UHGV virus genome: UHGV-1804406 | Strand: one strand, 5' to 3' | Length of the DNA stretch: 12,891 nucleotides | Source of the DNA: a virus | Shown: positions 1-8,297 of the stretch, piece after piece | Position numbering within the stretch: the first letter of the stretch is position 1 | How the letters are laid out: each line of letters begins with the position of its first letter | The notes under the pieces: model-generated | Seen by the model: the letters and a program-made list of their open reading frames with translations, nothing else | Databases searched by the model: none | Told to the model about the DNA's origin: nothing | Position numbers and translations under genes: made by a program

Positions 1-2615
1 TTTTCCTGTATATCTTTCGCCTGCTGCTCCAGCTCGTCGGCATGGTTTTTGATTTCGTCAGCCATGCCAGCAATTTTTTCATTGCTGTCCACTGCGCTCT
101 CAATCAGATCTTTAAACGTAGCGGAGTCTTTGATCTCCTCCAGGATCACATCGGTGATATCGGAAACATCGATGCTGGCCTGACCTCGCACCCAGTCGGT
201 ATACCCGGACTCGTTTCCCGTTCTGTCGACCAGTTGCGCGCGATACCAGAAAATCTGCCCTGCCTTAAGACCCATCTGCTGATATTTGCGCTGCGGATAA
301 GGCACATCGGCCAGCAGCATGGCATCGTCTTCAGTACCGGTCAGGCTGTACTGAATTTCCGTCTTCAGCGTGTCGTCGGTATTCGCCTGGAATCCCCAGT
401 TCAGCTCGATACCGAACACCACGTTTTCAGAGGCGATAAAGCCAACCGGCTTCGGTGGATTGCCCACTTTACCCGTCAGCGTTTTCTCTTCTGAATAGCC
501 CCATCCGGATGAAATTTCTGCGGCATTGATTGCGCGCACCCGCACCAGGTAACGCCCGGCATAAATCCCCGGGACGTCGAATGACGTGGTGGAGGTGCGC
601 GGCACGTTAACCCAGTTCCCGTCGTTGCGGCGCCATTGCGCTTCATAGGCGATAGCGTTCTGCGCCTGGTCCCAGCTCACGCGCATTGTTTCGACGCTGA
701 TATTTTGCTGAACCACGGAAAACGAGCTGATCACGATATTCGCAGGCGGCGACTGGTTGCCCGGCGGGATCACGCTCACCGGCCGTTGGTCAATGATGGC
801 TCCGGTATCGATACGGGCATATTTATCCGGGTCGTGCCATGCGCCGGTAATCGAGAAAGTGCCATCATTGTTATCGGAAACGCTGACAACACGATACTGC
901 TGCGCGTAAAGCTCGTCAGATTCAACCACCCAAACAGCTTCGGCCTGTGGCGTCTCACTGTATGCCGTGGTGACTGTGACTGATTCCCCGTTCACGGCCT
1001 GAATGGTCCTGCTCTGCGACGCTCCGGAAGGCAGGTTGAGAATAAGGCGATCACCTGGTGCTGCATCAGCTACGCGGTCAAGTTTGATAACGCGACCGTT
1101 AACGGCGCTGATGCGGCCGCCCATAACCTTTCCGGAAAGCAGCTCGTCTGCCACGGCGATGATGTAGCCCGGCTGCGGAATGTTTCCGTCCAGCCCGACA
1201 TCAAACGAAACAACGCGATCCTTGTTATTGGTGAGAATACCCCAGCGCCCCTTTCGGTTCGCCTCTGACTGCCTGGTGCAGCCGATGGCTGTCATTTCCA
1301 GCTGATTGAAGCCGTACCGCGCCACCAGCGCCTGCTCAAATACCGGCTCCATCGCGTCGGCATAAGCGTTACCCGGGTCTGACCATGAAACCAGCGCTGT
1401 GGTGTAGCGGCTTTTCGTGGTGCTGCTCGAATAGGTGAAGCGACCGCCAACAACGTTAGCGCGCGTATAGCTGTAATCAACATCGCGCGGCATGTCAGCC
1501 AGGGCCACAATCTGATCCCCGCCCCAGTAGGTCATGCCACGGAAGATAGCGGCAAAATCACGCAGGACTGTGTAGGCGTCGTTCCGGTCCTGAATGTACA
1601 CGTTGCAGGTATAGCGTGGTTCTGTACCGTTGCCCCCTTTGCCGTCTGGTACCATCTGATCACAATACTGAGCAACCTGATAAAGCGTCCATTTATCAAT
1701 ATTCGCAGCGGTCAAACGGTGCCCAAGGCCGAACCGGTCAGAAACAACCAGGTCGTAAAAAATCCACGCAGGGTTATCCGTCCATGCCCACTTAAACGCA
1801 CCGGTCCATGTACCGCTATAAGTGCGGGTTTCAGGGTCGTAGGTATCTGGAACGCGGATAACGCGGCCGCGCGGTTCGCATGAAATTTGAGGAATAGAGC
1901 CGTTGAACTGGCTTGAGTCGAATTCGACGTAGAGCAGCGCGGTGTTCGGGTAGCGCAGTTTGGCGTCAATCACCTCGGTGAAGCTCTGCAGCATCATCGT
2001 GTCGCCGATCTTCGCGCTGTTGGCGTCAGAGGTAATCTTACGCAGACGTATTGTCCATGTGCTGCCAGCCTGCGGTAAATCGATACGGTGGCTGCGCTCA
2101 TAACCAGACGTCGTTTTGCCGGTCACGCTGGTATTGAGTACCGTCTGCCATGTGCCGCCGTCAGTCTGCAGGTCAATCGCATAATTGACCGAGTAACCCA
2201 CCAGATCGCCGTCGTCTTCCTGTTTGAAAAGCGAGGGCCATTTAAGACGCAGGCGAACTGCTGAAAGCTGCGTATTGGTAAACGTGCGCGTCCAGGCTGT
2301 GGCACTTGATACCTCAGTTCCTACGCTGATCTCGTTTTCGGTACCGGGAATACCCTGAATATATTTTTGCGCCTGCGTTCCCGCGCGAAACTCCCACGTT
2401 ACCCCGCTGAAGTTTTGGGAGCCGTCAGCATTCTCCAGCGCTGTTCCGTCCAGGTAGATATCTTTGCCGGTGAGCTGTCCAGCAAACTCCCCTTCCCCAA
2501 GCGCAACGAGGATTTTTGCCTTCGCTACAGATTGCAGATCATCAGGCTGTTCGGTAGGGGTTCGGGAACTTGAGCTGCCGCCCTTGCGGCCTTTTAACAC
2601 TTTATCTGTAGCCAT
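1..2615 (-). CDS. J: Tail tip / host specificity protein J (central tail fibre), N-terminal ~871 codons; C-terminus lies beyond the window start
   Basis: Open minus-strand frame from ATG at 2615..2613 to the window edge (codons end at position 3); not in the ORF track because it runs off the window. Translation begins MATDKVLKGRKGGSSSSRTPTEQ and contains blocks such as YPNTALL..EFDSSQF and QYCDQMVPDGKGG..TEPRYTCNVY that match my recollection of lambda gpJ. It is in the expected position after I. Weak SD; in-frame stop 2651..2649 upstream rules out a longer N-terminus. Confidence 0.9.
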   Translation of the reverse strand, partial: MATDKVLKGRKGGSSSSRTPTEQPDDLQSVAKAKILVALGEGEFAGQLTGKDIYLDGTALENADGSQNFSGVTWEFRAGTQAQKYIQGIPGTENEISVGTEVSSATAWTRTFTNTQLSAVRLRLKWPSLFKQEDDGDLVGYSVNYAIDLQTDGGTWQTVLNTSVTGKTTSGYERSHRIDLPQAGSTWTIRLRKITSDANSAKIGDTMMLQSFTEVIDAKLRYPNTALLYVEFDSSQFNGSIPQISCEPRGRVIRVPDTYDPETRTYSGTWTGAFKWAWTDNPAWIFYDLVVSDRFGLGHRLTAANIDKWTLYQVAQYCDQMVPDGKGGNGTEPRYTCNVYIQDRNDAYTVLRDFAAIFRGMTYWGGDQIVALADMPRDVDYSYTRANVVGGRFTYSSSTTKSRYTTALVSWSDPGNAYADAMEPVFEQALVARYGFNQLEMTAIGCTRQSEANRKGRWGILTNNKDRVVSFDVGLDGNIPQPGYIIAVADELLSGKVMGGRISAVNGRVIKLDRVADAAPGDRLILNLPSGASQSRTIQAVNGESVTVTTAYSETPQAEAVWVVESDELYAQQYRVVSVSDNNDGTFSITGAWHDPDKYARIDTGAIIDQRPVSVIPPGNQSPPANIVISSFSVVQQNISVETMRVSWDQAQNAIAYEAQWRRNDGNWVNVPRTSTTSFDVPGIYAGRYLVRVRAINAAEISSGWGYSEEKTLTGKVGNPPKPVGFIASENVVFGIELNWGFQANTDDTLKTEIQYSLTGTEDDAMLLADVPYPQRKYQQMGLKAGQIFWYRAQLVDRTGNESGYTDWVRGQASIDVSDITDVILEEIKDSATFKDLIESAVDSNEKIAGMADEIKNHADELEQQAKDIQE

Positions 2616-2626
2616 ATTGCGCCCAT

Positions 2627-2649
2627 AAAAAAGCCACCCAAAGGTGGCT
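2627..2649 (-). terminator. Intrinsic-terminator-like hairpin on the minus strand, 11 nt upstream of the J start codon
   Basis: Plus strand reads AAAAAA-GCCACC-CAAA-GGTGGCT; on the minus-strand RNA this is AGCCACC-UUUG-GGUGGCU followed by a U tract of 5-6. Seven-bp stem 2632-2638/2643-2649. No T run follows on the plus strand, so it is unidirectional. Confidence 0.5.
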
Positions 2650-2780
2650 ACTGTCTGAATATCAGGATGTTACAAATCTAAACACCTGGTTATGTTGTGG
2701 ATTCAGCCCGCCAGCGGTGGGACGCTGGTGAACTCATAACAGGTGGAATGGCTGATTACCTCTGGAAAAAGGAGAAGTAA

Positions 2781-3041
2781 ATGGGTTCGATGTTAGAACT
2801 GGAAAAAGAAGTGGCAGAGCTTAAACAAAAGCTGCTTACGCATGAAATTGCAACTGGCCTGATTCTATCGGACATTGTGAAATTACTGGACATTGCCCGG
2901 CCAGGCGCACTCGATGCTCTGACTAAAAACTATCAGGCAGGGCAAGCAAAAATCCCAGAATCAGCTGCACGTAATGATCCGCACACAATTGATGCGTTCA
3001 CGCGCATCCTTAAAGTTTTAGAGGTGGCATCAAAGAAATAA
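2781..3041 (+). CDS. Hypothetical small protein (86 aa) with predicted N-terminal coiled-coil; the only plus-strand gene candidate, inside the I-J insert
   Basis: ATG at 2781 preceded by AAGGAG with a 6-nt spacer (aaaaAGGAGaagtaaATG). 86 codons, MGSMLELEKEVAELKQKLL... The segment looks AT-richer than the flanking tail genes by eye. No minus-strand ORF of any length covers it (stops in all three minus frames between 2650 and 3010). Function unknown. Confidence 0.55.
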   Translation: MGSMLELEKEVAELKQKLLTHEIATGLILSDIVKLLDIARPGALDALTKNYQAGQAKIPESAARNDPHTIDAFTRILKVLEVASKK

Positions 3042-3327
3042 TTAAATCGAGCTTTTCATTGAATATTTCTTCATGAGTTTTAGCGGCCTCATTCTGGGCC
3101 GCTGTTACCGTTCCACCGAAAACCCCTGCATCACCCTGCGAAATCTTTCCCTCCTTTACTCGCAAACTCCAGCCATTACCGGTGATGGTCGAATGAATAG
3201 CGCCACCTGGCCGTAGTGCGTTCTGAATGGCGGAATTGACGATTGCCGGGTTATGCAGCTCTGCTATCTCCACCTGCAGGCTCGCGATGGTTGCCTCAAG
3301 CATGCTCATGCGCTCTTCTAAAGTCAT
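3010..3327 (-). CDS. Hypothetical small protein (105 aa), N-terminal Leu/Glu-rich helix followed by a Gly-rich segment; lies between I and J in the late operon
   Basis: ATG at 3327..3325 preceded by AGGAGA (caggagaaaactATG), 37 nt downstream of the I stop. Translation MTLEERMSMLEATIASLQVEIAELHNPAIVNSAIQNALRPGGAIHSTITGNGWSLRVKEGK...LKL. The track's longer 184-aa form (to 3564) would overlap I out of frame and lacks an SD. Its 3' end overlaps the plus ORF convergently over 3010..3041. Confidence 0.5.
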   Translation of the reverse strand: MTLEERMSMLEATIASLQVEIAELHNPAIVNSAIQNALRPGGAIHSTITGNGWSLRVKEGKISQGDAGVFGGTVTAAQNEAAKTHEEIFNEKLDLIISLMPPLKL

Positions 3328-3364
3328 AGTTTTCTCCTGCCTATCAGCTAATAAGTTAATTAAT

Positions 3365-3955
3365 TTACTGTTGATCTTCGACATAAATCCCGGCAGAAAT
3401 AATCGCACCGCCGATTTGCCGACGACCATAAAGAAGCGGTACCGGATAGCCCTGCGCGGCGGTGTTGGTGACTCCACCGAACGCGTATGAGGCGCGGTTA
3501 TCTGAACTCTGTTTGCTGGCCAGCCCCGCTGGTTGAGGGGAAAGCATCTGAACAACCCCGCCAATCATCATTGCGGCACCGAATTTGTATAAGAATGGTG
3601 ATGCCGCAGCCCAGGGTGTGAAATTAAGCACCGCCCCAACGGCAACCAGAACTGCACCAAGTATTGTCTGGAGTAATCCGGCCTTTTTGCTCCCGATAAT
3701 CACCGGGACAATGCGAATGACATCGCCGGTGACCGGGTAACCCAGGTCATCAACACCAATATTCTTTTTCCCTTTGAATACTGAATAAGTGAGACCACGG
3801 CGTTGGCTGGAAATCATAAACTGCTCAAAGCCCGGTATAGTCTTTGCCAGCGCAACACTCGCTTCGTTCACGCGGGAAATCAGGCGATGGTGAACTTTAC
3901 CGAATGTTTTCCCGAGCACGCCGCCAAGCTCAATGCGGGTCATTACTTCCTGCAT
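3365..3955 (-). CDS. I: Tail assembly protein I
   Basis: 196-aa ORF in the lambda I position, directly after K. SD AGGTG upstream of ATG 3955. Start overlaps the K stop (TAA 3945..3943) by 13 nt; an alternative in-frame ATG at 3943 is possible. Confidence 0.8.
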   Translation of the reverse strand: MQEVMTRIELGGVLGKTFGKVHHRLISRVNEASVALAKTIPGFEQFMISSQRRGLTYSVFKGKKNIGVDDLGYPVTGDVIRIVPVIIGSKKAGLLQTILGAVLVAVGAVLNFTPWAAASPFLYKFGAAMMIGGVVQMLSPQPAGLASKQSSDNRASYAFGGVTNTAAQGYPVPLLYGRRQIGGAIISAGIYVEDQQ

Positions 3956-4674
3956 GTTTCACCTGCCATTACATCTTTATAGCGAACGATCTTCATTGTG
4001 CGCTCCTGCCAGTATCCGCCATAAGGAACACGTTGACTCAGATGCCCGTAAAGATGGTGCAGCAGCATGTTACCCTCCAGTAAAATCCCGGCATGATTCC
4101 ACTTATCGGCCTGCACCTGCATGATGACGAGGTCCCCTTCCTGAGGCGGACCATCAAACTCCCTGAATCCGCACTCGTACCAGCACTCCTGATAGAAATT
4201 GTCCGGGTAGTCGTTTTCCCACCAGGGATAATCCACCCGGTAATCGTGGAGCTCGATACAGTGGGTCTGCCGGAAATAGCTCATTACCAGACCCCAGCAA
4301 TCGAAGTGGCCAAGCACGAACGGACGCTCCAGCAATGGCAGCTCCCCGCGTGGCTGAATGGTACGTAAATCCCCCTCTGGCCAGCTCACAATATGCCAGG
4401 GCAGCAGCGTTGCATCACACTGCGCCTTATCCAGCTCGCTGGCCTGCGTCGTCGCATCAGGATGGCTGTGAACAATGGCCACCACCGTCCCCCAGTCTTC
4501 TGCCGCTGCGTAATCTTCGGGGGACAGGTGAAAATGTTCAGTCGGCTCTGCTGCGAGATTACGACAGGGAAAATAGCGCTCAACCCGGCTTTTCTGTGCC
4601 ACCACGCCGCAGCACTCTCGCGGATATTCCGCTGCAGCGTGTGCCATGATGGCATCAATGGTTTTCTGGCGCAT
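3943..4674 (-). CDS. K: Tail assembly protein K, with MPN/JAMM-type motif and NlpC/P60-like Cys/His region
   Basis: Start chosen at ATG 4674 (MRQKTIDAIMAHAAAEYPRECCGVV) because it has a strong SD (cAGGAGctgat) and sits 1 nt after the L stop (TGA 4678..4676); the track's upstream start 4713 lies inside L. Contains the JAMM-like HSHPD...S..D motif and conserved Cys/His further on, as in lambda gpK. Confidence 0.85.
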   Translation of the reverse strand: MRQKTIDAIMAHAAAEYPRECCGVVAQKSRVERYFPCRNLAAEPTEHFHLSPEDYAAAEDWGTVVAIVHSHPDATTQASELDKAQCDATLLPWHIVSWPEGDLRTIQPRGELPLLERPFVLGHFDCWGLVMSYFRQTHCIELHDYRVDYPWWENDYPDNFYQECWYECGFREFDGPPQEGDLVIMQVQADKWNHAGILLEGNMLLHHLYGHLSQRVPYGGYWQERTMKIVRYKDVMAGETCRK

Positions 4675-4675
4675 A

Positions 4676-5431
4676 TCAGCTCCTGATAAGAGATGTACCG
4701 GGGAAACCGCCAAACGGCAGCTCGTTGCTGTCTCCGTGCCGGAGCTTGCAGGCCGTCAGCGTGCCGTTGCAGACATCCAGCGATGGATCGTCAACCGGAT
4801 TATTGTTTTTGTCGAAATAGCGCGTTCCGGCATAGTCGCAGCCGTCGCCGGTCCGGTACTTGTTCCGGATGCACCAGCTGCATAACGAATGCAGCTGCCG
4901 CGTGGGTATCATCTGGCCCTGTAAATCCATCGGACTGGAAAGCGTAAATTCAACAGATTCATCCGTCTCGGTGCTTCTGGCATCGATATAAAAGACCTTC
5001 AGCTTTTCCTGTGACGGGTCTGCAGTGGGATTGCCCTGCGGAAAATTTCTGGCGTCCAGATACTGTGCCAGCGTGTCGTGGATACTCACTTTCGCCTGCA
5101 GCAGATCGTCATACGCCAGACAGAGCGCTGAGATCGAGCTGTCCAGGTTCGCCACACTCAGTTTTGGCTGTGGACTGGTACCGTCCGTAGTCGCTTCAAT
5201 ACCCTCAACCTGACACGGCCAGGCTTTATACTCCTCCCCCTGCCACCAGATGGACTTCGCCGGAAGTTTATTCTCATCCCCGCCTGCAGCCTCAATCTCT
5301 TCCGGGGTATGCGCGATATTATGTGCGTGGAAGCGGAGTACATCTGACATACCGAACGCTGTGCCATCGACAGAAAAAAGCCGGACTTCATTGCCCGGCT
5401 CGAGTTTTTGATAATCAGCATTAAGACTCAT
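4676..5431 (-). CDS. L: Minor tail protein L (Cys-rich, lambda gpL-like)
   Basis: 251-aa ORF. Its ATG (5431..5429) overlaps the M stop (5430..5428) in an ATGA arrangement, indicating translational coupling. C-terminal Cys cluster (CSWC...C...C...C) as in lambda gpL, which binds an Fe-S cluster. Confidence 0.85.
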   Translation of the reverse strand: MSLNADYQKLEPGNEVRLFSVDGTAFGMSDVLRFHAHNIAHTPEEIEAAGGDENKLPAKSIWWQGEEYKAWPCQVEGIEATTDGTSPQPKLSVANLDSSISALCLAYDDLLQAKVSIHDTLAQYLDARNFPQGNPTADPSQEKLKVFYIDARSTETDESVEFTLSSPMDLQGQMIPTRQLHSLCSWCIRNKYRTGDGCDYAGTRYFDKNNNPVDDPSLDVCNGTLTACKLRHGDSNELPFGGFPGTSLIRS

Positions 5432-5775
5432 GGTGCAAATGCCTGTTCAAACGTTGCGGTTACGGTTATCACTTTTACGTTTTTAACCACCTTTTTGAGC
5501 GTGTCAGCCTCGACACGCCACAGCGCGGTATCGCCGAAAGGCGGAGTGAAAATAAACGACTTCACTTTATGCCGCCGAAGGAAGGCATGAATTTCATTCG
5601 CTGTAGTCGGATCCCCTGAGAAGGAAAATTCATAGGTGCGAATTTCATCATTCAGACCTGAGCCGCTCACCTGTGCGTAACCGTCGCCGAACTGGACCTT
5701 CCTGACGGTGTCTTTGCTTCCCTCTGTGGGCTGGCTGGAGACCTTAATACCCCAGGAGAATGTTTCTATCGTCAT
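5428..5775 (-). CDS. M: Minor tail protein M
   Basis: 115-aa ORF 5 nt after the H stop (TAA 5783..5781). Contains an RKVQFGDGY block matching my recollection of lambda gpM (RKVRFGDGY). Synteny H-M-L. Confidence 0.85.
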   Translation of the reverse strand: MTIETFSWGIKVSSQPTEGSKDTVRKVQFGDGYAQVSGSGLNDEIRTYEFSFSGDPTTANEIHAFLRRHKVKSFIFTPPFGDTALWRVEADTLKKVVKNVKVITVTATFEQAFAP

Positions 5776-5780
5776 AACTG

Positions 5781-8297
5781 TTACCTGCGATTGTTCGCAT
5801 TCCAGATAAGCCCACCGGGCTGGATTGCCCTGGCGATACCATCGTTGACAGATTTGTTAATCACCTGCTGATACGCCTTACCCAGCCTGTCTCCGTCATT
5901 TTGCTGCTGTGCGCCACCGGAGGCATTCTCGACGGTCACAGGCGCGTACACGCTCACCCCGAAAGGTGCTGCAGCGGGACCTGTGCCACTGCCCCCGACA
6001 AGCCCTCCTGTGGCGTACCCTTTCATCATCCGGTAAAGGTTGCCGACGCCGATCCGACTGGTAGCCTCTTTGGTGAAAACAAATTCGCCACGGTGAACGA
6101 CACCTGCGGGTTCATATTTCCCACCCGAACCGGTGAATCCCCCGCTGGCAAACCCCAGCGCCGTGGAGGCTGAATCTACCAGTCCGGTCATTGCCTGCTT
6201 CAGCAGAATTTGTGTCAGCATGGAGAGCGTGGAGCGGGTAAAGTCAGCCCAGTCAGCCTTTCCGCGTGTCAGCATGTCTGCCATATTCTGCCCGATGCCA
6301 TCAAACGTACTGGTGGCAACCGACTTCATCTGGCCATAAGCATCTGAAGCGGAATCAACATAATCTGCCCATGCGGATTTGGCCCCGGATTGCCAGTCGT
6401 CCCGCAGCTTATCCTGCTCGGCGTAATACGCCTGCAGCGCCTGCAGCTCATTCTGATAACCAGCGTCGTTCTCCGAACCGCCACCATTTTTCCAGCCCTG
6501 AAGAAGCTGGTCCTCCTCATTGCGGCGTTGTGCTGCACGACTGCTCATACCAGCACTTTCCGCAAGGGCTCGGGTTTTCTCGCCGATCTGCGTGACGTAT
6601 TTTTGGGACGTATCCTGCAGGCGGTTAAGCCGCTCCTGCGCCACTATCTGATCGCCAAGCTTCGCATTCAGCTCCGCACGGGAAAGCACCTCACTTTTAC
6701 TGGCCAGCAGGGATTTTTCCTCAGCAGAAAGCGTTCGGGTCTTCGCGGCCTCTTCCAGAACCGTAAAGCGGGACTGCTGACGCCACAGCTCCTGACGCTG
6801 CTGGCTGATGGTGTCATTGATGCTCTTATGCTCCTGCAGGGTGCGCAGCTGTGTCTGTAGCTCCAGCGTCTGGGCACTGGCCGTATCGGTGGCACGGGCA
6901 CCTGCGGGGGTTCTGATTGCCGGGGTCTTCTTCGGCTTTTTAAGGGTGTCTTCGTACTCTTTTTTCGCGGCAGCCAGGTTGATGTTGTAGTCAGCCTGGA
7001 GGATCCGCCCCTCTTTCAGCGCCTTGTTGAGCTCGCTCTGCCTGGCCGTGTATTTCTCCAGTGCCGTCTGCGTTTTGGCATAGTTTGCCTGTGCCTGCGC
7101 AGCATACTTCTGGCGATCCGATTCCGCAGCCGCTTCGCGCGATGCATTCTCTTCGTTCGCCCTGGCAATTCCCGCCTGCTGCTGCGCCATATCCAGCGCA
7201 AGCCTGGCCGTTTCGCGGTCATTCCAGAATCGGGCGCGAGCCTCATCATTGACATATCGGTCACCTTTACGCAGGTTCCAGATTTCATCAGCTTTTTTGA
7301 ACGCGGCTTCGGCTTTTGCCACCATCTCCTGCGCGGTGTCAGGTCGGCCAATATCGAGGGCTGCATCCCACATCGACTTGAAGGCGCGCTTCAGGGAGTC
7401 CGCTGAAGACTCTATCGTCCCCATATTGTCGCGGATGGCTTTGGTCTGATCGTTGAATCCGGCTGTAGCCGCCTCGTTAGCCGCCTGCAGTGCGCCAGCC
7501 TCATCACCGGCACGCTGCAGCTGCGCCACATGGGCAATCTGTTCTGCGGTAACGTTATGGAACTGCTGGGCCATCGCGATCAGGCCCGATGTCGGGTCAG
7601 TTGCGAGCTTGCCGTAGGCTGCAGCGACTTTCTCCACCGGCACGCCGGAGGCATCAGTAAACCGCGCCACCGCCTGGCTCATTTCATCAAAGCGCGAGCC
7701 AGTACGCACACCTGCATTGATAAGCTCGGTCAGGGCTTCACTGGTCTGGTTGAACGTTAGCCCCGCTGCCTGTCCGTTCCGCGCCAGTGCCAGCATGCGG
7801 TCAGCTGTCAGTCCGGCTGTGTTCCCCGACAGTACCAGCGTTTTGTTGAAATCAGACAGAGTGGAAGAGCCCTGGTACCAGGCATAGAACAACGCGCCCG
7901 TTGCAACGGACAATGCACCAATGCCGACCATCAACGGGGAAATCGTCCCCAGTAACGCCCGGAATGTCGGAATGATCCCGCCAAAGGAGTCCTTAACCTG
8001 ACCGCCCTGCTGAAGCAGAATCAGCCAGGGGTTCTGCCCACCCGCCAGCTGCGTAGCCACGTCAGTAAACTGCGCCGGGAGCATACGCATCGCTGCGTTA
8101 TACTGACCCACTGAAATACCGGCCTTACGCGCGGCGTTCTCCTGGCGGCTAAAGGACTGCTGGATCCGTAGCGCTTCGTCGTTCGCCGCGCTGCCAGTCT
8201 GCTTTAATTCTTTTTTGACGTAGTTAAGCTGCTCGTTAAATTTCGTCGAGTTAACGTCAAGGTTAACGACCAGATCACCCACTGCCGTCTGGGCCAT
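5781..8297 (-). CDS. H: Tail tape measure protein H
   Basis: 838-aa ORF with SD AGGAGG. Long colinear blocks match recalled lambda gpH (GISVGQYNAAMRMLPAQFTDVATQLAGGQNPWLILLQQGGQVKDSFGG; C-terminal GGKYEPAGVVHRGEFVFTKEATSRIGVGNLYRMMKGYATGG). Central region is Ala/Gln/Glu-rich and helical. Start overlaps the T-frame 3' end by 23 nt. Confidence 0.95.
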   Translation of the reverse strand: MAQTAVGDLVVNLDVNSTKFNEQLNYVKKELKQTGSAANDEALRIQQSFSRQENAARKAGISVGQYNAAMRMLPAQFTDVATQLAGGQNPWLILLQQGGQVKDSFGGIIPTFRALLGTISPLMVGIGALSVATGALFYAWYQGSSTLSDFNKTLVLSGNTAGLTADRMLALARNGQAAGLTFNQTSEALTELINAGVRTGSRFDEMSQAVARFTDASGVPVEKVAAAYGKLATDPTSGLIAMAQQFHNVTAEQIAHVAQLQRAGDEAGALQAANEAATAGFNDQTKAIRDNMGTIESSADSLKRAFKSMWDAALDIGRPDTAQEMVAKAEAAFKKADEIWNLRKGDRYVNDEARARFWNDRETARLALDMAQQQAGIARANEENASREAAAESDRQKYAAQAQANYAKTQTALEKYTARQSELNKALKEGRILQADYNINLAAAKKEYEDTLKKPKKTPAIRTPAGARATDTASAQTLELQTQLRTLQEHKSINDTISQQRQELWRQQSRFTVLEEAAKTRTLSAEEKSLLASKSEVLSRAELNAKLGDQIVAQERLNRLQDTSQKYVTQIGEKTRALAESAGMSSRAAQRRNEEDQLLQGWKNGGGSENDAGYQNELQALQAYYAEQDKLRDDWQSGAKSAWADYVDSASDAYGQMKSVATSTFDGIGQNMADMLTRGKADWADFTRSTLSMLTQILLKQAMTGLVDSASTALGFASGGFTGSGGKYEPAGVVHRGEFVFTKEATSRIGVGNLYRMMKGYATGGLVGGSGTGPAAAPFGVSVYAPVTVENASGGAQQQNDGDRLGKAYQQVINKSVNDGIARAIQPGGLIWNANNRR

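Follow-up and report, generated by a model that had tools for sequence, protein, structure and literature searches.

The window analysed here is a stretch of 12,891 nucleotides (nt) from the virus genome UHGV-1804406, and all coordinates refer to it unless another record is named. Its tail module is encoded on the minus strand, with a lambda-like gene order. Between the tail genes I and J lies ORF105, an open reading frame (ORF) for a protein of 105 amino acids (aa). It is a real gene, placed for reading with the late tail operon, and it is cargo, not a core tail gene. ORF105 is met from the other side by ORF86, a convergent frame of 86 codons. The 3' ends of the two frames overlap by 32 nt, so that the final 10 codons of ORF105, with its stop codon, run antisense to the last part of ORF86. 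About 395 nt separate ORF105 from J; ORF86 and its leader fill this gap. The G+C content is 46-47% in 2551..3150, against 54-59% in the flanking J and K-L genes.

The translation of 3327..3010 agrees exactly with the protein quoted in the first-pass annotation of this DNA, including its glycine-rich stretch RPGGAIHSTITGNGWSLRVKEGKISQGDAGVFGGTV. As described there, the ATG at 3327 stands 37 nt past the stop codon of I, which ends at 3365, and it has its own Shine-Dalgarno (SD) sequence, AGGAG, six nt upstream (3338..3334). The location between I and J and the tail-gene orientation were also given correctly, but the convergent ORF86 and the wide gap in front of J had been missed.

Taken alone, the length of ORF105 is within chance, as the ORF list contains many spurious frames of at least 100 aa opposite real genes. 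The longest form of the frame would give 184 aa from a TTG at 3564 and would overlap I. What lifts ORF105 beyond chance is its PHROG match, the 118 protein clusters related to it, the conserved ribosome-binding region, an N-terminus that is invariant across insertion sites and a stop-free frame. Across 3082..3327 there are no stop codons in the ORF105 frame versus 2-6 in each of the other five. A single-sequence search with ORF105 found four clusters, while a profile built from diverse relatives found 118, all of them named “hypothetical” and coming from the Enterobacterales Escherichia coli, Citrobacter, Leclercia, Salmonella, Yersinia, and Pantoea. The family members are 50 to 134 aa long, apart from one 199-aa fusion. 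In an alignment of 40 sequences M1, E4, and R6 are invariant, T2, L3, L10, and E11 are at least 90% conserved, and the consensus start reads MTLEQRVEALE. The third codon positions under this N-terminus vary between loci (ACT/ACC/ACG, CGC/CGA/CGT/CGG), indicating that selection acts on the peptide.

The first-pass annotation had considered that the frame might not be conserved in related phages or might be a remnant of I or J. Instead, it is kept in related prophages and open in the 118 clusters, and comparison with the gpI C-terminus by hhalign gave a probability of 0.1-0.25%, which speaks against a remnant.

Cassette ends, insertion sites and HK97 counterpart

ORF105 and ORF86 together form a low-GC mobile cassette of about 730 bp (about 2616..3349) with defined ends. 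Its boundaries were compared in 19 cassettes for the left end and in 16 for the right end, plus HK97. The left end is AGCTGATAGGCAGGAGAAAACT in the window, with the consensus AGCCGARAGGCAGGAG-N5-6-ATG, and includes the SD sequence. The same approximately 22 nt precede the ATG after I, H, M, and other tape-measure genes, and further upstream the sequence is specific to the context. At the right end the hairpin AGCCACC-N4-GGTGGCT with a run of six T is followed by ATGGGCGCAATATG, which leads into the start of J at 2615. At each insertion site this hairpin and spacer, ATGGGNGNAATATG, lead into the start codon of the following tail gene, M, L or J. A near-identical hairpin with spacer also closes the separate K|I moron of HK97. 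The combination (in HK97, locus L052, at 4800-4825 and 6108-6130) appears to be a joint of general use where tail operons of this kind take up inserts.

In constant orientation, the cassette was found at the I|J, H|M, and M|L junctions of lambda-like modules, and in a different tail module it comes directly after the tape-measure gene. Its occurrence is limited to tail-tip gene clusters in prophages of the six taxa named above. The window allele is rare. It was present in 3 of the 5,426 complete E. coli genomes and in no sequenced phage, and lambda lacks ORF105. Among 50,697 phage records tblastn with ORF105 and ORF86 returned nothing, and megablast matched only the J start with the hairpin. 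ORF105 had been proposed to be a tail-assembly or tail-tip accessory protein, or cargo. The last of these is supported, given a low-GC mobile two-gene element with conserved ends at several tail-tip junctions, while a link to the tail is only hinted at.

ORF105 very probably belongs to a cassette of the HK97 gene 22/23 type. The moron genes of HK97 were reportedly described by Juhala and co-workers in 2000. In the HK97 record (NC_002167) gene 22 occupies 14475..14837 on the plus strand (120 aa) and gene 23 occupies 14715..14975 on the minus strand (86 aa); both lie at I|J, and two putative terminators are annotated, one of them the right-end hairpin. The arrangement is that of the window: the same junction, a small co-oriented gene, a convergent gene of about 86 aa overlapping its 3' end, and a junction hairpin. 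The left end AGCCGAAAGGCAGGAGA-N5-ATG, the conserved leader and the terminator hairpin with the TTTTTTATGG spacer before J are shared as well. The kinship was recognised from the annotation and these boundary sequences. It is not visible in the proteins directly, as gp22 has no direct similarity to ORF105 (tblastn against the phage records; hhalign probability 0.05%) and lacks both the MTLEQRVEALE coil and the xPGG segment described below. However, gp22 does match one branch of the ORF105 family, the beta-module branch (BLASTP E 4e-8, hmmsearch E 3e-8). This branch shares the N-terminus, the hinge and the cassette ends with ORF105, so the link to gp22 runs via mosaic relatives only. HK97 gp23 is unrelated to ORF86 (hhalign probability 0.09%; tblastn of ORF86 against the phage records was empty). 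The comparison indicates that the forward gene is a mosaic and the reverse gene a replaceable slot. A paper-library search for the function of gp22 or gp23 found none.

Other tail-operon morons, such as the one encoding HK97 gp15, are likewise small extra genes between tail genes closed by a terminator hairpin. HK97 gp15 is a single inner-membrane protein which is expressed from the prophage and blocks DNA entry (Cumby et al., 2012; PMC3594210). ORF105, by contrast, lacks a membrane segment, shows no evident promoter and is paired with a convergent gene.

ORF86 is all-helical and has an invariant NDPH motif in its alignment. It belongs to a family of 13 clusters, and the identical protein occurs on 453 contigs. 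A convergent small gene stands beside the ORF105-type gene at every locus examined. The proteins encoded in this reverse slot, behind one conserved leader, are small, helical and 71-97 aa long. At least seven unrelated types were seen, which suggests a swappable payload under common control.

The leader spans about 130 nt, and its DNA is conserved at all insertion contexts above the level of both coding regions. It contains a possible weak promoter and two nested helices. The outer one, P1, is nearly invariant in the consensus fold, and the enclosed 8-bp hairpin P2 shows three compensatory pairs, with U-G wobbles only on the ORF86 strand. An invariant CCTC immediately precedes the SD sequence of ORF86. 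An Rfam search of the cassette produced only sub-threshold matches resembling small RNAs, which were caused by the terminator hairpin, and no significant family for the leader. It may be a regulatory leader. A promoter scan called no site at its threshold for ORF86 or ORF105. For ORF105, co-transcription with the late operon, as proposed in the first-pass annotation, is plausible in view of this result and of the mere 22 or so conserved nt before its ATG.

Table 1. Genes and sequence features of the window and of related loci discussed in the text.
Feature	Coordinates	Strand	Basis or remark
H, tape measure	8297..5781	minus	lambda-like tail module
M	5775..5428	minus	lambda-like tail module
L	5431..4676	minus	lambda-like tail module
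K	4713..3943	minus	lambda-like tail module
I, 196 aa, upstream neighbour of ORF105	3955..3365	minus	PHROG 32 tail assembly protein, E 3.6e-73; aligned with lambda gpI
J, N-terminal 871 aa, downstream neighbour	3..2615, runs past left window end	minus	open frame; Pfam FNIII-A_GpJ, E 1e-50
ORF105, 105 aa + stop	3010..3327	minus	PHROG 22477, E 2.5e-73; matches HK97 gene 22 (“moron product”) in position
ORF86, 86 codons, convergent on ORF105	2781..3041	plus	PHROG 23209, E 5.5e-59; matches HK97 gene 23 (“reverse moron product”) in position
Cassette left end	3328..3349	minus	includes SD AGGAG
ORF105 residues 3-24, N-terminal heptad-repeat helix, protein opening MTLEERMSMLE	3256..3321	minus	AlphaFold2 helix, pLDDT about 85
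ORF105 residues 25-47, HNPAIVNSAIQNALRPGGAIHST, resembling the tape-measure C-terminus (helix then xPGGx[IL][WY])	3187..3255	minus	hhalign, segment HMM
ORF105 residues 48-75, optional glycine-rich insert ITGNGWSLRVKEGKISQGDAGVFGGTVT	3104..3186	minus	present in some relatives only in alignments; AlphaFold2 pLDDT <50
Inverted repeat AGCGGCC-N8-GGCCGCT, encoding hinge AAQNEAA	3082..3103		41-62 nt beyond ORF86 stop; mosaic breakpoint between body and tail
ORF105 residues 83-105, C-terminal tail KTHEEIFNEKLDLIISLMPPLKL, amphipathic helix 85-99	3013..3081	minus	AlphaFold2 pLDDT 80-87
ORF86 leader, about 130 nt	2650..2780	plus	DNA conservation
Possible weak promoter, TTACAA and TATGTT, 15-nt spacer	2670-2675, 2691-2696	plus	conserved
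Helix P1, TCAGCC with GGCTGA	2703-2708, 2750-2755	plus	encloses P2
Hairpin P2, 8 bp	2709-2716, 2723-2730	plus	compensatory pairs
ORF86 SD, AGGAG	2770-2774	plus	
Cassette right end, hairpin	2625..2649	minus	terminator-like site in scan
Reverse-slot examples in related loci	L021 4254-4493; L022 4256-4471; L046 5308-5523; L049 5200-5433; L003 6278-6523; L052 5716-5976		

Two observations concern gene I. It scores 15.5 bits against Pfam Lambda_tail_I, far under the cut-off of 23.8, despite its strong PHROG 32 match, and its C-terminal 45 residues are near-identical among the otherwise diverged I proteins of related prophages. In relatives a second site for cargo lies at the K|I junction (L001 13415-14426; L002 4895-5320; L049 1482-4283; L050 2431-4300), where KilA-N domain, SocA_Panacea-domain, and FtsK_gamma-domain proteins and several unnamed ORFs are encoded. 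In the window this site is empty, and K and I overlap there.

Selection and mosaicism in the two genes

The ratio of non-synonymous to synonymous substitution rates (dN/dS) for ORF105 is about 1 among close relatives (for instance 0.050/0.051; 0.079/0.040; 4 of 4 differences non-synonymous), these being small counts of 4-12 differences per pair. It is 0.3-0.5 for the most distant pairs only. ORF86 has a dN/dS of 0.06.

The middle modules of ORF105 are shuffled among relatives, and the tails past the hinge split into many unrelated types. The family hinge AAQxQAA is the translation of a DNA inverted repeat. Of the 17 cassettes examined, 12 have GCGGCC-N8-GGCCGC at the corresponding position. 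HK97 has CCCCGG-N5-CCGGGG as a counterpart, which its record lists as the putative gene 23 terminator. In the window the repeat is followed by no T-run on either strand. It may be an RNA 3'-end stabiliser, a processing site or a recombination joint.

The ORF105 tail subtype always agrees with the subtype in the ORF86 slot when the pairs are tabulated. Such a match would follow from the layout alone, since the tail-coding DNA is antisense to the 3' untranslated region and the last codons of the reverse gene. One family member, P0053 (199 aa), continues past the hinge into a domain of about 100 aa, which BLASTP aligns with residues 15-76 of HK97 gp22. P0053 is accordingly a forward gene of the RPGG type fused to one of the beta-module type.

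The contrast between dN/dS of about 1 in ORF105 and 0.06 in ORF86 raises the question of whether the ORF105 product matters much. ORF86 might be the functional gene and the ORF105 frame a translated passenger held open opposite the 3' untranslated region and terminator of ORF86, perhaps holding ribosomes on the late mRNA or modulating ORF86 by convergent transcription and translation. This would fit the dozens of unrelated tails produced where the frame reads past the hinge into whatever comes next, a hinge sequence dictated by the DNA repeat, and the predicted disorder of the protein middle. We nevertheless consider this explanation rather unlikely. The N-terminus is near-invariant as protein while its third codon positions vary, the strong SD sequence is kept in all contexts and the frame stays open throughout the family. 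Moreover, dN/dS drops at greater divergence, and the xPGG segment and the C-terminal helix are conserved in a protein-like pattern.

ORF105 protein and its resemblance to the tape-measure C-terminus

The AlphaFold2 monomer model of ORF105 built with 40 sequences has a mean predicted local distance difference test score (pLDDT) of 68.5, compared with 58.9 when five sequences were used. It contains helices at residues 3-24, 27-38, and 85-99 and a low-confidence glycine-rich middle. The helical N-terminus, the glycine-rich middle and the lack of a membrane segment noted in the first-pass annotation are borne out by helix 3-24, by the ill-defined middle and by the absence of any hydrophobic membrane stretch. 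A Foldseek search of BFVD, the only library run, found nothing below E 2.6 with this weak model. In the PDB, sequence search with ORF105 gave weak matches to designed trimeric coiled coils only. ORF86 had no meaningful PDB match, and Pfam, NCBIfam, and PADLOC had nothing meaningful for ORF105 or ORF86, the Pfam and NCBIfam matches being at chance level.

Residues 25-47 resemble the C-terminus of lambda-type tape-measure proteins. Comparison of the ORF105-family profile with the tape-measure C-terminus profile by hhalign gave a probability of 93.3% (E 2.8e-7) over 28 columns; the gpI C-termini mentioned above served as control comparisons. We also scanned 5,952 real and spurious frames with a hidden Markov model (HMM) of this segment. 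Among proteins longer than 200 aa, it picked out almost exclusively the last 25 or so residues of ORFs in the tape-measure position, although these matches are individually weak (E 0.07-9). The shared feature is a helix followed by [RKSQ][PD]GGx[ILV][WYF], as in lambda gpH 818-853 and PF09718 (Tape_meas_lam_C): the motif reads AIVNSAIQNALRPGGAIHS in ORF105, GIARAIQPGGLIWNA in the window H protein and DEIQTQMRDGGLFSG / DEIQTQMRDGGLF in lambda gpH. In lambda, the tape measure terminates inside the tip lumen as a three-helix coiled coil made of gpH residues 818-842, which is seated on the gpI tripod (PMC10721106; PMC11101478).

Only about 28 columns align between ORF105 and the tape-measure C-terminus. 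The motif is C-terminal in tape-measure proteins but internal in ORF105, and many members of the ORF105 family lack it. BLASTP of ORF105 against the tape measure of the window itself gave nothing significant, and the likeness emerges with profiles only. At the sequence level it is a resemblance and does not amount to PF09718 membership.

Another short motif points towards the tail tip in some relatives of ORF105. Those with GGQxFIDDAxINAGxVKAAQI score 17.5-22.3 bits over about 30 residues against Pfam PF09327 Phage_Tail_Tip (cut-off 22), which is the C-terminal domain of J-like proteins. ORF105 of the window does not match this family. The likeness is confined to a short motif in part of the family, and a tail connection is hinted at by it.

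Two other resemblances were set aside. The GVFGGTVTAAQ of ORF105 is similar to gpI YAFGGVTNTAAQ, and mimicry of the gpI plug was considered, but the profile comparison with gpI C-termini gave the negligible probabilities quoted above. A 2,137-aa adhesin-like protein (seven stretches) and a 506-aa repeat protein were matched in an exhaustive HMMER search via GDAGVFGG, and this apparent kinship to trimeric autotransporter adhesins or repeat proteins was taken as short-motif similarity.

The tape-measure-like segment and the heptad N-terminus could be read as signs of an accessory tail-tip protein, a small trimeric coil docking on the gpI tripod or beside the tape-measure end, made in step with the tip genes and serving either as a virion part or as a transient assembly factor, with ORF86 as an unrelated passenger. 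The position of the cassette would suit such a protein, as it always lies within the H-M-L-K-I-J block or its post-tape-measure equivalent and is co-oriented. The J-tip-like motif of the relatives, with up to 22.3 bits against PF09327, and the seat of the gpH coil on gpI in lambda would suit it too. However, the gene is dispensable: it is missing from lambda and from nearly all E. coli prophages. Its dN/dS of about 1 in close relatives stands against well-conserved adjoining structural genes, and the protein varies from 50 to 134 aa (199 aa in the fusion) with interchangeable middles. Besides, an ORF105-type gene never occurs without a convergent gene, and Foldseek gave no structural match. 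Near-neutral evolution, extreme mosaicism and the obligate convergent partner make a standard structural role less likely, and we regard the accessory-protein explanation as unlikely.

Comparison with Tab/anti-Tab

The closest functional parallel to the layout of ORF86 and ORF105 comes from the Pseudomonas phage JBD26. Its Tab protein blocks tail assembly, the determinant of sensitivity lies at the tape-measure C-terminus, and anti-Tab binds Tab (Patel et al., 2024; PMC10884400). The tab gene has its own promoter and can be expressed from the prophage, while anti-tab is on the late transcript (PMC10884400). JBD26 carries atab on the plus strand (13377..13628) and tab on the minus strand (13582..13833). 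Each codes for 83 aa, and the two genes converge within the late operon with a 47-nt overlap of their 3' ends. The window pair shares this layout, with proteins of 86 and 105 aa and a 32-nt overlap. Furthermore, Tab is tied to the tape-measure C-terminus, and ORF105 has a segment resembling it. The two pairs differ in their surroundings, as the JBD26 pair is located between terminase genes of a Mu-like phage while the window pair is part of a lambdoid enterobacterial tail-tip cluster.

We estimate at roughly one in three the probability that the ORF86/ORF105 pair works like Tab/anti-Tab, ORF86 being the defence protein and ORF105 its late antidote or decoy. This assignment is favoured by the Tab-like layout in combination with a tape-measure-terminus-like coil in the late-strand gene. 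ORF86 would be made in the lysogen from its own signals and would be directed against related phages that come in, its point of attack plausibly being tail assembly by way of the tape-measure C-terminus. Production of ORF105 would await the switching-on of the late operon, and the protein would then neutralise ORF86, allowing the prophage's own tails to assemble. It could do so by binding ORF86 via its partner-matched C-terminal helix or by serving as a decoy, a coiled coil ending in the tape-measure-like xPGG motif. Independent expression of ORF86 is suggested by its location on the opposite strand, by the conserved leader with its strand-specific P2 hairpin and by strong purifying selection. 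Late expression of ORF105 is suggested by the lack of a promoter-like site, by the short conserved stretch upstream and by the strong SD sequence. Fast evolution and module shuffling of ORF105 are as expected of a counter-defence protein.

A number of results weigh against this assignment. Comparison of the window pair with Tab and anti-Tab gave nothing better than E 1.9 by BLASTP and 0.10% by hhalign, and PADLOC assigned ORF105 and ORF86 to none of its families. The putative promoter of ORF86 is a weak, if conserved, TTACAA-N15-TATGTT that the scan did not call. The predicted ORF105 monomer is mediocre (pLDDT 68.5). The tape-measure resemblance covers 28 columns and was spotted before being tested, and none of 10 ORF105-family members matched PF09718 at E up to 10. 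The motif is not required for pairing, since in the related locus L002 ORF86 is 100% identical while the accompanying ORF105 relative has no RPGG, and the beta-module branch, including HK97 gp22, does without a tape-measure-like motif. Finally, the dN/dS of about 1 equally fits weak constraint, and the match of tail and partner subtypes is also predicted by simple linkage.

The roles of the two proteins could also be the reverse. ORF105 would then be a decoy poisoning the tip complexes of competing lambdoid phages, and ORF86 a regulator or immunity factor. A coil with a tape-measure-like end seems suited to occupying the docking site at the tip, and fast modular evolution fits a specificity determinant. 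But ORF105 has no visible promoter and lies in the late operon, so its synthesis would coincide with the assembly of the phage's own tails instead of taking place in the lysogen, and it is ORF86 that occupies the prophage-expressible strand. We consider this reversal very unlikely.

Even less probable, in our view, is a toxin-antitoxin or abortive-infection module with no tail connection. Two genes for small proteins on a mobile element, one of them fast-evolving, would be in keeping with it. However, no PADLOC, Pfam, or NCBIfam matches point that way, a convergent antisense overlap is atypical as protein toxin-antitoxin pairs are usually co-transcribed, and the location is limited to tail-tip gene clusters.

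A broader version of the Tab-like assignment can be put forward as a doubtful extension of it. The cassette might be a widespread, so far unrecognised enterobacterial counterpart of Tab/anti-Tab, a plug-in element of lambdoid tail operons in which an ORF86-type protein made by the prophage seizes the C-terminal coil of the tape measure and so stops the tails of invading relatives from being assembled, and in which the late partner shields the resident phage through mimicry of that coil. The dozens of exchangeable reverse genes and forward-gene modules would then make up a specificity library.

We class the window pair as a new allele of an HK97 gene 22/23-type cassette. This type of cassette has been known in HK97 since 2000, labelled only as a moron and a reverse moron. 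New here are the definition of its ends, its occurrence at several insertion sites, the extent of the unnamed family, the likeness to the tape-measure terminus, a structured leader in front of the reverse gene and the Tab/anti-Tab parallel. The late-strand gene of such a cassette can bear a segment resembling the tape-measure terminus, which in lambda is seated on the gpI plug of the tail tip. Should the Tab-like assignment prove false, the annotation would still be improved, with a moron pair in place of a missing tail gene. If it is true, an assembly-blocking defence with a built-in antidote would reach from Mu-like phages of Pseudomonas to the classical lambdoid phages, for which genetics and tail structures are at hand.

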